From IMG/VR virus record IMGVR_UViG_2728369182_000009: 38,884 nucleotides of DNA. One strand, written 5' to 3'. The position numbers are program-made. Shown in pieces: positions 1 to 6,000 of this stretch. Source of the stretch: a virus (lineage: Duplodnaviria > Heunggongvirae > Uroviricota > Caudoviricetes). Numbering within the stretch: the first letter of the stretch is position 1; every line of letters begins with the position of its first letter.

Positions 1-3000
1 TCAGGAGCATTTCTGATTAACGCCACCGTTAAGAATCCACCCTTCAACAGCTTCACGAAGGTATGATTTGGGGTGGGTTCTGACTGGCTTCGGAAATCCG
101 TGCCGTTTGGTATAGTTCCAGATTGTCTGACGTGATGAAACACCGAGCTTGTTCATCACTTCTTTCTCAGGAATCAGGCTGGTATCGGTCATCTTAATTC
201 TCCAGGCAAAAAGAAACCGCCATCAGGCGGCTTGGTGTTCTTTCATTTCTTTAATTCGAATATTGGTTACGTCTGCATGTGCTATCTGCGCCCATATCAT
301 CCAGTGGTTATAGCAGTCGTTGATGTCCTCTGCTTCGATAACCCTGTCGAATGGCTCTCCATTCCATTCACCTGTGACTCGGAAGTGCATTTATCATCTC
401 CATAAAACAAAACTCGCCGTAGCGAGTTCAGATAAAAGAAATCCCCGCGAGTTCGAGGATTGTTATTCATTGCCGATATTCACCTTTATCGCGAACACCT
501 TTACCGGTTTATCGCCGAAGTGCGGATGTGTGATTGTCTTGATTTCATATCCGTCATACGGAACATCAATTCTACGGCTGGAATCGTCGCGCTTCGGATA
601 TCCCTTTGTGATAATCAGGCGGTCATACTCCCGGAACATAATTCGCTTATTCCAGTAGTCATTACACAGGCGATACTCTTCCGTTTTCTCTCCGCGAATC
701 ATGGCATCGAAGTATTCACCTTTGACGGCAAGTTGCAGGTTAGCCACGGTTAACCTCCTGCGGCGGTTCTGCTGCAAAATACGCAATACCTTTATCCCAG
801 ATGGATTTTATGGTCGTCCACGTGACTGGTACTTTAATTTCAATCCGCCCGCTACCGTCACAGGTATCGCAATCATCATCGCCAAAGCATTCCGGGCAGC
901 TGATAAACGTAGTTTCTGAAAATTCACCGGATAGCGCACCCTTAGCGCCGTTCTCGGCTGTTAGTCTCTTCGGCACCACGACCCAACCATCCGGAGTTCC
1001 CGGAGAGTTGCCATTTACATCGAAGTTTGGCTCTGCGTCCTGAACCAGGAGGATGTAACCATTCTTGGCTGTATCAAGTTCTAACGCCTCGGTGACGGTG
1101 CCGAAATAGCGATTACCTAAATCAGCATCACAAGTGCTTACATCAATGGAAACTTCCATCCCTTCGATTAATTCTGGCAAGTTGTAAGTTTGGCTTACAG
1201 GTTGGATACCCTGAAGCATGGCAGCGTGGCAGGCATCCTCTACGCCTTTAACTGCATCTGCACAGTAGTTATAGCGATTGCATTCCACTAACTTCTGCTT
1301 GAGATTTTCAATTGCTTGCGCGACATCAGCCTGCAATTCCCGAACTGGCGGAGTAGCATATAACGGCACCCACTTTGGTGCTTTATCCCCGACCGAACGC
1401 TGATACCAGTCACCCGGTTTGTATTCATAAAACTCACCAACAGGCTCTGCTTCCAGCGATGCCAGCGCAATTTCATAAGCACGGCGCTCAATATTGTCTC
1501 GCACGTCCAGGCTGCCGATTCGCTCCCTGATTTCTTTAATTAGTTCTTTGTCGGTGAAAGTAGTCATGTGTTAGTCCTCATCCACTTCAACGCCATCTTT
1601 CAGCGTGATGCCGTGCCAATCATCAGCCCAACTGGTTAGCCCTGGCGCATCAATGCTAGGCATATAGACGCTTGCAGTGTGGTAGCCCTTATCGTTATCA
1701 ATGCTGGCAACGTGCTCGCCGTTGTATGCGCTCAGCGTGTCCAGGACGCTATAAAACTTTCCTCCGGCTGCCCTGAAATCCTTTACAGCCTTCACAAGGC
1801 GATTCCACGCTTTTTCCTGTTCTGGCGTCAGGTCGATTAATTCCTGCAAAGTTGCCATATCACTCTCCTTTGATGCGAATGCCAGCGGCGCGGATTGCGG
1901 GATTGTATGCAAGTCCTCTCATGGTAAATTCCTCTTTGTTAATTTATTCGTATGCCTGCTCTTTCTTCATCGAGTTTTTTTAGCTTGTATCGCATAGCTC
2001 TTACTGAATAAATTGAGCGGCAGGTTGCAATTGCTATTTCTTCTGCGGAGAACTTACCGAAAAGTGATACTTCGGCTCTTGTCCAGCGTCTTCCACGAAG
2101 TCGGCTAACAATGTCAGCTCCAATCCTTGTTGCTTTCGCCATTACTGCTTTTTCAGTCCTTTCCAGTTTTTCAGCGATAACTTCAACTGGCATTGTCGCC
2201 GCCACTTCGCGCAAGAAATCGACTTCCCATTTCTCCCATGGAGTCTTTTTCATAGGCGATACCGTTATTTGATAAGAAGTGAAGGTTTCCCAACTTTGAG
2301 TTGAGCGCCGGGGATATTTATTCCTGCTTTTAGTTGGTGTTTGATTGCCAGTTTGTCGGCTTTAATTGTCGTTTCGAACTCAACGTATTCAGGAGGAAGG
2401 GCGCTTGAGTCGATGATTTCTACAGTTTCTGACGGTTTGCGGATTGTTACCTGGTGAATACCTGCTCGAATCTTTTTCTTGCCAACCATTTCAAGCGATG
2501 ACGCTATATACGCCATAATGCTGTCAATCTTATTTTGAATTACTGCGGCTCGCTCATTTAGTGACTTTGCCTCTTCCTTGAGGCGTTCAGCATAACCAGA
2601 TTCATTTTTAATAATGGCGAGAAGTTGCTCTATTTTATCGGTAAATTCTCCTTCCATGCCTTCTATTGTGTCAGCAATCATCTCTGGCTCTAAATCTGAA
2701 TCCATCAATTTTGCGTATTCATTGGCTATTTCATACAGTTTGCTCACTGGCAACCTCCAGTTTCGCTTTGCATTCTATGTAAATGGCTTGTACGTTCTGC
2801 TGCAATTTCATTCCAGATGTCAGGCGATATGCTTCTGCAAAATATCGCTTCAAATCATCCATGTTTTCTGCCTGAGCCATTTCATCACAAAGAAGTTGTG
2901 CTTTTTCCATTATTTCCTGCTGGCGTTTCCGTTCATCTTCGCGGATATCTTCCTCTGATTTGTGCGGCATAACTGGTTCCTGATGCATACCTTCATCTTC

Positions 3001-6000
3001 GTTAAGCAGGTGAATGGCATTATCCAGTCGCTGGGCTTTAGGCCAGTATTTGCTGGCGCGTTTAACTATGGTTTTACGCGCCATCTCTTCCCAGAATGTC
3101 TTCCACGGTCCATTCTTTGCCTTGCTCGTTGCTTCCACAGCTTTAATTTCTGCCAGACTCATTTCTTCAGTGAGGTAGTCACCATCTGCTGTTTTAACCG
3201 TACAATAACCACCAACAATAGAGCCTCGTTCACCAAATGCGTTGTATTTGTGGGTTGGTGCTGAATCAAGGCCGTTTGATTCATAGGTGTCGTTTGAGTA
3301 CACCAGTTTGCATTGCCCCCACTTAATTGATCCTGTCGACTGTGCAAGGTGAAGTAATCCCATATAGCTGATATCAAGGCAAACCATGCCGTCGCGCGGA
3401 ACTAGATAAGCAAGTTTGCTGGCCGGGTTTAAGGTGATGCCGATCGCCGCAACATTGATGATGGCGTTCTGTGCGCTGGTTGGATTTGCCAGTGCCGTTT
3501 TAGCCAGGTAATCATTTTTCTGGAAATACTGAATTGCAAACTGGCTTTCCTTAGCCCATGTCACCGTCTGTTCAGTCAATGCTCCGCAGAATAACTGCTC
3601 TTGCTGTTTAACGAATTCAACGATATTGCTCATGCTGCTTCTCCAAAAATGTGTCTGCGTTTGAATATTGCGAAGGCATATTCAGCCTTAACTCTTTCGG
3701 TTATTGCATCCCAGAACCATTCAGCGGCTTTTTCCTGATAGTTACAGTCATCATCTTCCAGCCAGTCGATAGCGTCCTTAGTGTGTTCATCTGGTTTATA
3801 TGAGCGAAGCATTTCGCTTATTGGGTCGCAACGTTTGCAGAGGCGATCAACTTCACTGTTTATTCGTTCGTAATCTTCATCAGTAAAACTTGCGATTATT
3901 TGCGATATTTCACGCTTATCATTCAGAGTCAGAATCATCATCTTTCTCCTGTTCTTTGTGCTGATTGAGCATTTTGTTCATCTGACGAATGAATTCTTCG
4001 TCTGACCAGTTATCTGTAAAACTCATTTCCTGCGATACCACGGAAGGTTGATAGCTGATTTCATCGCTTTATTTGCTTCAAGCCACATTTTTGAATCACC
4101 AATAAATCGGGCTATTACTGCTTTGTTCTGTGCAGCACGAAGCATCTGGTGATTGATGGCTATTTCATTGCGCATAACGCCTCCAGTTGTTTCTTTGCTG
4201 CTCTGATTAATTGTTTAACTCGGCGTGATAATTCAGATTCGTGCGGGTAGAAAGCGGACATGACGCCGCTTCCCGCATAGCTGAGTTGCATCATGGGGAA
4301 GTTCCTTGGTTAGTTGTGATTACATTACGATTGAACACTTGAATAAATGCTAACTAAGATGCGGTAATTAAAAGTCGTTTATTCGGTGGCTCTTAGTTTT
4401 TTACATAATTCATGCAATAGGTAGGACTGCAATCTCTCCAGGTGTTTTTATGCTGCATGCGTTGCGATGGCGGATAATAAGCTACTGTTCCATTCGGAGT
4501 TCTGAATATCAGAGTGTTATTTCCTTCCTCAAACTCAACTTCATTGCGCCTAAAGAAAGCCGATATTCTTTCGAAAGCCGAGTCGCGAGCCTTTCGGCGT
4601 CGTTCTTTAAGTTCTGGTTTCCAGTCTCGCCAAAATTCACCCATGTCACCCATAAAACACTCCGTCAAAAAAATCGCCCTCACACTGGAGGGCAAAGAAG
4701 ATTTCCAATAATCAGAACAAGTCGGCTCCTGTTTAGTTACGAGCGACATTGCTCCGTGTATTCACTCGTTGGATGAATACACAGTGCAGTGTTTATTCTG
4801 TTATTTATGCCAAAAATAAAGGTCACTATCAGGCAGCTTTGTTGTTCTGTTTACCAAGTTCTCTGGCAATCATTGCCGTCGTTCGTATTGCCCATTTATC
4901 GACATATTTCCCATCTTCCATTACAGGAAACATTTCTTCAGGCTTAACCATGTATTCCGATTGCAGCTTGCATCCATTGCATCGCTTGAATTGTCCACAC
5001 CATTGATTTTTATCAATAGTCGTAGTCATACGGATAGTCCTGGTATTGTTCCATCACATCCTGAGGATGCTCTTCGAACTCTTCAAATTCTTCTTCCATA
5101 TATCACCTTAAATAGTGGATAGCGGTAGTAAAGATTGTGCCTGTCTTTTAACCACATCAGGCTCGGTGGTTCTCGTGTACCCCTACAGCGAGAAATCGGA
5201 TAAACTATTACAACCCCTACAGTTTGATGAGTATAGAAATGGATCCACTCGTTATTCTCGGACGAGTGTTCAGTAATGAACCTCTGGAGAGAACCATGTA
5301 TATGATCGTTATCTGGGTTGGACTTCTGCTTTTAAGCCCAGATAACTGGCCTGAATATGTTAATGAGAGAATCGGTATTCCTCATGTGTGGCATGTTTTC
5401 GTCTTTGCTCTTGCATTTTCGCTAGCAATTAATGTGCATCGATTATCAGCTATTGCCAGCGCCAGATATAAGCGATTTAAGCTAAGAAAACGCATTAAGA
5501 TGCAAAACGATAAAGTGCGATCAGTAATTCAAAACCTTACAGAAGAGCAATCTATGGTTTTGTGCGCAGCCCTTAATGAAGGCAGGAAGTATGTGGTTAC
5601 ATCAAAACAATTCCCATACATTAGTGAGTTGATTGAGCTTGGTGTGTTGAACAAAACTTTTTCCCGATGGAACGGGAAGCATATATTATTCCCTATTGAG
5701 GATATTTACTGGACTGAATTAGTTGCCAGCTATGATCCATATAATATTGAGATAAAGCCAAGGCCAATATCTAAGTAACTAAGTAAGAGGAATCGATTTT
5801 CCCTTAATTTTCTGGCGTCCACTGCATGTTATGCCGCGTTCGCCAGGCTTGCTGTACCATGTGCGCTGATTCTTGCGCTCAATACGTTGCAGGTTGCTTT
5901 CAATCTGTTTGTGGTATTCAGCCAGCACTGTAAGGTCTATCGGATTTAGTGCGCTTTCTACTCGTGATTTCGGTTTGCGATTCAGCGAGAGAATAGGGCG

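Follow-up and report, generated by a model that had tools for sequence, protein, structure and literature searches.

How does a lambdoid phage that carries a RecT-type annealase without an exonuclease gene beside it manage its DNA ends, and what is the small acidic protein encoded directly upstream of recT? The question is raised by positions 2731-4294 of the IMG/VR virus record IMGVR_UViG_2728369182_000009 (Caudoviricetes), whose full 38,884 nucleotides (nt) are referred to here as the window. The genome is lambdoid and P22-like, with late genes sized as portal, coat and tailspike, a lambda cI-rexAB-N immunity region, and replication genes for an O-like initiator and a DnaB-type helicase. A first-pass annotation of the sequence had located cIII, kil, a gene for a 103-amino-acid (aa) acidic protein and recT within 2731-4294; open reading frames (ORFs) and profiles agree with it exactly, and all four genes lie on the minus strand. 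We propose that the acidic protein is probably a third sequence type of Gam-fold RecBCD inhibitor, highly diverged and with a putative function. A broader proposal, which we regard as evenly balanced, is that its family, phrog_3486, constitutes a third, unrecognised Gam-fold type heading at least four Rec architectures in enterobacterial lambdoid phages, that HK140-type modules carry two anti-RecBCD or end-protection functions, and that the C-terminal domain of their RecT has swapped exonuclease binding for Gp157 binding.

The early-left Rec module

The genes here make up an early-left Rec module from a P22-like lambdoid phage, of the already described, exonuclease-less HK140 type. Its gene order is cIII - kil - 35-aa ORF - 102-aa protein - recT - gp157 - Mu-gp9-like gene:

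4160-4294, minus strand: cIII, 44 aa (Pfam cIII PF08134, E 1.3e-25, above the gathering score)
4023-4175, minus strand: kil, host division inhibitor, 50 aa (Pfam Lambda_Kil PF06301, E 1.7e-20; phrog_2055, E 1.2e-35)
3919-4026, minus strand: 35-aa ORF (phrog_17766, E 5e-16; its N-terminal 20 aa match phrog_2123)
3630-3941, minus strand: 102/103-aa acidic protein with a predicted Gam fold, putative RecBCD inhibitor; first gene of the Rec module
2731-3633, minus strand: recT, 300 aa (Pfam RecT PF03837, E 2.6e-33; phrog_148, E 1.5e-91)
2265-2747, minus strand: Sipho_Gp157 protein, 'MuGam-type', 160 aa, putative partner binding double-stranded DNA (dsDNA) ends (PF05565, E 1e-36)
1939-2253, minus strand: 104-aa Mu gp9-related protein, PHROG label 'D5-like regulator' (phrog_323, E 2.8e-20)

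Read from the DNA, the genes from cIII to gp157 form a chain of translational coupling. cIII and kil overlap by 16 nt, the kil stop and the start of the 35-aa ORF share an ATGA overlap, and the 35-aa ORF runs into the gene for the acidic protein, which ends in a second ATGA overlap with the start of recT. The recT and gp157 genes overlap by 17 nt, and a gap of 11 nt separates gp157 from the 104-aa gene. For the acidic protein, homologues and Shine-Dalgarno spacing indicate that the second ATG (3938) is the likelier start, giving 102 aa. The protein contains 24 D/E against 15 K/R residues, for a net charge of -9 and an isoelectric point (pI) of 4.65.

A predicted Gam fold for the acidic protein

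The 102-aa protein has no match in Pfam, NCBIfam or the PDB sequences, either as a single sequence or as a 36-member profile. It belongs to phrog_3486 ('unknown function') and is a 'hypothetical protein' in RefSeq. A HMMER search against 1.84 billion representatives recovers 51 clusters, of which about 35 are full-length relatives of about 100 aa, with identities down to 25%. The AlphaFold2 model built on the deeper alignment (predicted local distance difference test score, pLDDT, 91.4; predicted template modelling score, pTM, 0.78) is all-helical, and lambda GamS is its best match among all PDB chains, clearly at the top by Z score, root-mean-square deviation and coverage. The model has the helical composition and long terminal helix of GamS, and the two align structurally with about 15% identity. 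In bulk properties the family (median 102 aa, net charge -9, pI 4.65) is close to GamS (98 aa, -10, 4.71), and a small acidic gene between kil and the annealase gene occupies the lambda gam slot.

Comparison of profiles adds a short stretch of sequence likeness. The hhalign alignment between the family and Gam (E 0.0014) covers 27 collinear columns (57-83 against 59-85), in which both have the motif DDDxxYQExxAE where the long C-terminal helix begins, and none of 300 column shuffles reaches its score. Reciprocal searches with family and Gam hidden Markov models (HMMs) give 9-12 bits (11.6 for the Gam HMM on the 102-aa protein), against at most 5 bits for unrelated proteins.

Several results speak against a Gam relationship. 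The Pfam Gam profile, PF06064, matches none of the 36 family members even at E 10, and the hhalign probability against Gam is just 17.5%. When blocks are shuffled with the motif kept intact, 22 of 300 shuffles reach the observed score, so that the short motif gives most of it. The GamL proteins of phi80 and HK639 have no meaningful BLASTP likeness to the family, and the hhalign alignment with phi80 GamL is collinear over the full length but weak (probability 6%, E 0.006). Foldseek found no Gam in the PDB with the first, poorer model, nor in BFVD with the good one. That first AlphaFold2 model, made from a shallow alignment (pLDDT 75.6), had no Foldseek match in the PDB and is superseded; the BFVD search with the good model returned one probable family member.

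The first-pass annotation had guessed that the acidic protein might be a Gam/Abc-like modulator of RecBCD or another nuclease. The Gam side of this guess is upheld by the predicted fold, the slot and the replacement of the gene by Gam or GamL described below. The Abc side is not, as the hhalign probabilities for P22 Abc1 and Abc2 are both below 1% and there is no PDB sequence match to Abc2. This functional guess was the valuable part of the annotation and now has moderate computational support.

Natural replacement at the gam slot

The Gam assignment is best supported by a natural allelic series. In RecT-Gp157 modules that are otherwise orthologous, the gene upstream of recT is one of three kinds:

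Window and HK140 group: 102-aa family (reference for the identities below)
Dewey: true lambda-type Gam (63% identical to lambda Gam, E 1e-56); RecT 86% and Gp157 96% identical to the window
HK639: phi80-type GamL (53% identical to phi80 GamL); RecT 66% and Gp157 62% identical to the window

No case of a 102-aa family member together with Gam occurs among the fetched loci. GamL, too, is a diverged form of Gam, with an N-terminus that matches the profile of Gam at 92% probability, and it is reported to have a predicted fold similar to that of Gam (PMC12315714). The phi80 record annotates GamL as an inhibitor of both RecBCD and SbcCD.

The allelic series also bears on a different explanation, namely that the 102-aa gene is an unrelated 'moron' of the early-left region, with an anti-defence or regulatory role for instance, and that its likeness to Gam is a coincidence of small acidic helical bundles. 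We consider this doubtful. Across a family whose members fall to 25% identity, the gene is invariably placed at the head of Rec modules. It and Gam or GamL exclude each other at this slot in orthologous modules, and Gam stands out by all three structural measures in the comparison of the predicted model.

Set beside known modules, the assignment to Gam is best seen in lambda Red (cIII-kil-gam-bet-exo; Gam PDB 2UUZ and 5MBV), where cIII, kil, a small acidic helical protein and an annealase follow in the same order. Lambda Gam resembles the 102-aa protein in length, charge and predicted fold, and has the short collinear motif in common with it. The differences are that the 102-aa protein falls outside Pfam Gam, that the annealase of the window is of RecT rather than Red-beta type, and that Gp157 replaces Exo. 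HK639 has an architecture identical to that of the window, a small Gam-like gene followed by RecT, Gp157 and a regulator. The RecT of phi80 is 57% identical over the annealing domain; however, it is paired with a lambda-type Exo and its C-terminal region is unrelated. P22 offers a further parallel, as a P22-like phage whose annealase lacks a phage exonuclease and whose accessory genes, in the same operon position, handle RecBCD. Its annealase is Erf rather than RecT, though, its Abc1 and Abc2 are unlike the 102-aa protein, and its Arf is unlike the 35-aa ORF beyond 12 residues. P22 Abc2 is reported to re-programme RecBCD without blocking it (PMC9836394).

The family leads Rec modules of several types

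Diverse members of the family always follow cIII, kil or a tiny ORF directly, and always lead the Rec module, of whatever type. In the fetched loci, designated by L numbers, and in named phages, the family member is followed by:

RecT, YqaJ: L004, L015
RecT, Exo: ENT47670, Midgardsormr38
Erf, YqaJ: L007, L008
167-aa protein without known function, YqaJ: L009, L010
RecE-like, RecT: L016
RecE-like: L006
RecE-like: SEN22 (102-aa protein 95% identical)
RecT, Gp157: L013, L014, HK140 group

The annealases behind the family show no BLAST recognition among themselves, so a specific partnership with one annealase is unlikely; and because the family member usually co-occurs with an exonuclease, it is not a substitute for one. 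From this genomic context, in which it leads modules with unrelated annealases and with an exonuclease present, the 102-aa protein appears to act independently of RecT.

These loci also count against an accessory role for the 102-aa protein in the sense of P22 Arf, which would load or stimulate the recombinase and not be directed at a host nuclease. Such a role would fit a gene that lies directly upstream of the annealase gene with an ATGA overlap, exactly as P22 arf does before erf, and that always leads the Rec module. We nevertheless judge it to be quite unlikely: annealases as dissimilar as RecT subtypes without a mutual BLAST match, Erf and the 167-aa protein argue against specific contact, a RecE-like exonuclease stands directly downstream in three loci, the protein resembles none of Arf, Abc1 and Abc2, and the predicted fold and the slot agree with Gam. 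The idea that a conserved C-terminal 'EAA/EVA' of the family might serve as a docking tail was dropped, the residues being at least partly explained by the Shine-Dalgarno sequence (GGAG) and the ATGA overlap of the next gene.

Two observations concern the relatives themselves. In L009 (723-1226) and L010 (477-980), the annealase slot before YqaJ is filled by the 167-aa protein (phrog_21613), which has no Pfam or NCBIfam match and is a candidate for an unrecognised single-strand annealing protein. In the two loci with Erf and YqaJ, a gene for Gad1 (anti-Gabija) lies just upstream of cIII (L007, 3706-4680; L008, 1640-2614). Phages with end-binding proteins that exclude RecBCD are reported targets of Gabija (PMC12407980).

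Absence of an exonuclease

The ORFs of the left arm, the early-right and nin regions and the accessory genes were scanned against Pfam, PHROGs and NCBIfam. No match to YqaJ/lambda-Exo, RecE/DUF3799 or another PD-(D/E)XK exonuclease was found among them. By profile, RecT has no adjacent exonuclease and the left arm no nuclease-like ORF, as had been read from the sequence alone; the profile searches of neighbouring proteins then suggested likewise give no exonuclease match (275-aa protein, phrog_60; 104-aa protein, phrog_323; 102/103-aa protein, phrog_3486). The first-pass annotation overlooked the Sipho_Gp157 gene (2265-2747), which overlaps the 3' end of recT. With gp157 as the downstream neighbour of recT, the module falls outside the two-component Exo/Bet or RecE/RecT class. 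Chi sites are absent (0 seen, 0.75 expected), which is uninformative.

The only nuclease-type matches are YbcO and RusA (neighbours of NinB), two HNH genes, one GIY-YIG-like gene and an intein endonuclease. The distal right-arm accessory genes of recombination are:

14078-14488, plus strand: ninB/orf, recombination mediator (Pfam NinB PF05772, E 1.1e-55)
16223-16585, plus strand: rusA-type Holliday-junction resolvase (Pfam RusA PF05866, E 1.1e-16)

The intein is found in the DnaB-type replicative helicase (10590-12983, plus strand), which has 797 aa against 458 aa for P22 gp12 and contains an insert at about residues 209-454 with Hint and LAGLIDADG homing-endonuclease matches. Three free-standing genes of selfish-endonuclease type are located in the nin/late-regulatory region, all on the plus strand: HNH_3 (15171-15677), HNH_3 with AP2 (17480-17992) and MUG113/T5orf172, which is GIY-YIG-like (20007-20492). 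This load of selfish endonucleases is unusually high for a 39-kb phage.

A cryptic exonuclease nearby, encoded by an unannotated left-arm ORF or by gp157 itself, which would make this a disguised conventional exonuclease-annealase pair, is very unlikely: gp157 does hold the exact YqaJ/Exo position of relatives, the RecT C-terminus co-varies with it, and three left-arm proteins lack a known function (113 aa, phrog_2821; 275 aa, Ea22-like, phrog_60; 107 aa, phrog_625), but neither they nor Gp157 match a nuclease family in the databases scanned, outside its own family Gp157 resembles only Mu Gam, which binds ends without catalysis, the variable genes of the left arm do not travel with the module (the neighbours differ in HK140, JCKP02 and Dewey), and HK140 was scored as nuclease-less in an independent survey (PMC12315714).

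The first-pass annotation regarded the missing exonuclease as an anomaly on the premise that RecT normally sits beside one. This premise is not supported, given the published HK140 type, the P22 precedent and the wide occurrence of the cassette. RecT without an exonuclease is an ordinary, already catalogued layout, and the adjacency of the two is a commonly repeated statement rather than a rule. The classical exonuclease-less precedent is the P22 module c3-kil-arf-erf-abc1-abc2. A total of 133 recombinases was reported as detected in one survey (PMC2896510), and in a 2025 survey of 325 lambdoid phages a nuclease gene is missing from 84 of 246 Rec modules (PMC12315714). The same source describes HK140 as having a RecT-type annealase, 'SAP-4', and a MuGam-type anti-RecBCD protein, 'with no phage-encoded nuclease' and no single-stranded-DNA-binding protein (SSB). 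The window has this composition: SAP-4/RecT, then a MuGam-type Gp157, and neither a nuclease nor an SSB in the module. It agrees with HK140 in gene order and in the presence of Gp157, with about 94% DNA identity over the matched parts, and the 102-aa protein is 99% identical, the RecT N-domain 85% and the RecT C-region 93%. The cassette is found in the isolated phages HK140, mEpX1, Kapi1, Gally, Louie and EC.P3 at about 93-98% identity. Searching complete E. coli genomes with positions 2265-4294, we found matches to at least part of the query in 1132 of 5426 genomes and to at least 80% of its length in 264 of them.

The difference from the published account concerns the number of anti-RecBCD genes. 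Four types are recognised there, Gam, GamL, Abc2 and MuGam, and for HK140 the main text credits MuGam alone (PMC12315714). We propose that the 102-aa gene is a second such gene, with a Gam fold, and that it was apparently not recognised as anti-RecBCD in that main text.

Gp157 and the C-terminal region of RecT

The gp157 product is a full-length Sipho_Gp157 protein by profile (PF05565, 126.8 bits against a cut-off of 28.6, positions 1-162 of 162), as are all 15 relatives examined, and its gene occupies the exonuclease position of related modules. The tests made here link it weakly to Mu Gam. Phage_Mu_Gam (PF07352) matches nearly the full length at E 0.008, which at 16.6 bits is below the cut-off of 28.3, and gives weak matches in 5 of the 15 relatives (best E 0.0012). 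The hhalign alignments with Mu Gam, made with one sequence and then with three, are collinear with probabilities of at most 1.6%, and the Gp157 profile matches no PDB sequence. The link is supported by the PHROG label of phrog_253 ('Mu Gam-like end protection'), by the Mu-gp9-like neighbour and by the 'MuGam' class, in which the HK140 copy of Gp157 is placed (PMC12315714). In Firmicutes phages, homologues of Gp157 and of Mu Gam are also reported to share one position adjoining erf and sak4 (PMC8093625). Literature searches on Gp157 function returned positional remarks only.

The 104-aa protein encoded after gp157 resembles Mu gp9 (BLASTP E 5e-5), and Mu gp9 itself matches phrog_323 at 5e-29. 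The gene follows gp157 also in HK140, Dewey and JCKP02, and Gam-type and gp9-like genes thus travel together in Mu and in these lambdoid phages. In summary, the window resembles the Mu Gam/Ku system in the weak, near-full-length match of Gp157 to the Mu Gam profile and in the neighbouring gene of the gp9 PHROG, and differs from it in the sub-threshold score, the hhalign result, which is not significant, and a gene order inverted relative to Mu.

RecT itself is a clear family member (PF03837, 115.7 bits against a cut-off of 24, residues 31-214; TIGR00616, 76.8 against 52.65 bits), with an annealing domain at about residues 1-215. Compared with the window, RecTs divide according to the gene that follows them:

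RecTs linked to Gp157 (HK140, Dewey, L014, HK639, L013): annealing domain 60-88% identical, C-terminal 85 residues 39-95% identical
RecTs linked to Exo (phi80, ENT47670, Midgardsormr38): annealing domain 48-58% identical, C-terminal 85 residues without a match at E<=1

The C-terminal 85 residues of RecT co-vary with Gp157 and are specific to RecTs followed by it. This co-variation was not found stated in the literature examined. The C-terminal domain of Red-beta binds Exo in lambda. By analogy, the way in which the RecT C-region tracks its downstream gene argues that Gp157 may be the physical partner of RecT in the place of the exonuclease.

Mosaic makeup of the left arm

The left arm is a lambda/HK140 mosaic. 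The suggestion that this arm is not lambda-derived, on account of divergent Kil- and cIII-like peptides, is half right. Kil and cIII are clear members of their families, and ral-sieB-N (4668-6200), just to the right, is 99.5-99.9% identical to lambda and ev243. A sharp junction separates this lambda/ev243-like segment from an HK140/Kapi1/EC.P3-like segment (203-4830; Rec module and ea genes, about 93-98%). The lambda ea10 slot is filled by a 118-aa ORF (4393-4749) without a confident family.

The 35-aa ORF is unannotated in RefSeq relatives and prophages. It was considered as a P22 Arf and ruled out, the two having 12 residues alike (BLASTP E 0.007) and Arf belonging to phrog_2445. Between kil or cIII and the gene of the 102-aa family there is repeatedly a tiny ORF of 35-40 aa, translationally coupled on both sides (window, 3919-4026, minus strand; L004, 152-274; L007, 4888-5004; L014, 345-458; L025, 2888-3004). 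Its PHROGs vary by lineage, with 17766 and 2123 in the window and 2180 elsewhere.

A proposed working of the module

In the following scheme RecBCD inhibition, end binding, the contact between RecT and Gp157 and the origin of the single-stranded DNA are inferred; the analysis itself shows the identities of the genes by profile, their order and coupling, the likeness of predicted folds, the allelic series and the co-variation of the RecT domain. The 102-aa Gam-fold protein would block the DNA-end-binding site of RecBCD as lambda Gam does, protecting linear and rolling-circle phage DNA, and SbcCD could be a target too, as the phi80 record annotates for GamL. Gp157 would replace the exonuclease as the dedicated partner of RecT, binding or protecting double-stranded ends, probably in the manner of Mu Gam/Ku, and coupling them to RecT. 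Single-stranded DNA could be supplied by host nucleases and helicases or by replication forks. RecT would then anneal exposed strands, allowing circularisation of the headful-packaged, terminally redundant genome and recombination-dependent replication, with NinB as a possible mediator and RusA as a possible resolvase from the right arm.

Two considerations make this scheme less comfortable. The putative double targeting of RecBCD by the 102-aa protein and Gp157 is a redundancy that needs explanation; HK639 is the sole panel phage listed in the main text of the survey with two anti-RecBCD genes (PMC12315714). In addition, no result here points to a DNA-resecting factor. A comparable pairing is carried by HK639 and Dewey, which combine GamL or Gam, respectively, with Gp157.

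Implications

What is new here is a divergent candidate of the Gam kind and a testable RecT-Gp157 partnership, and the significance is modest. RecBCD inhibition aids recombineering with dsDNA. If the Gam assignment is confirmed, a functional name would be available for a widespread 'hypothetical' prophage gene, in a cassette present at least in part in about one fifth of complete E. coli genomes. According to literature abstracts, defence systems including OLD and Gabija are triggered or licensed by RecBCD inhibitors, and synergy between phage factors and quinolones is being explored. If the broader proposal is true, these phages would have a recombination pathway built from an annealase and an end binder, without the need for a phage exonuclease. 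The co-variation of the RecT C-region with Gp157 provides a testable handle on how DNA ends may be supplied and processed in lambdoid Rec modules without a nuclease, which make up roughly one third of the total.

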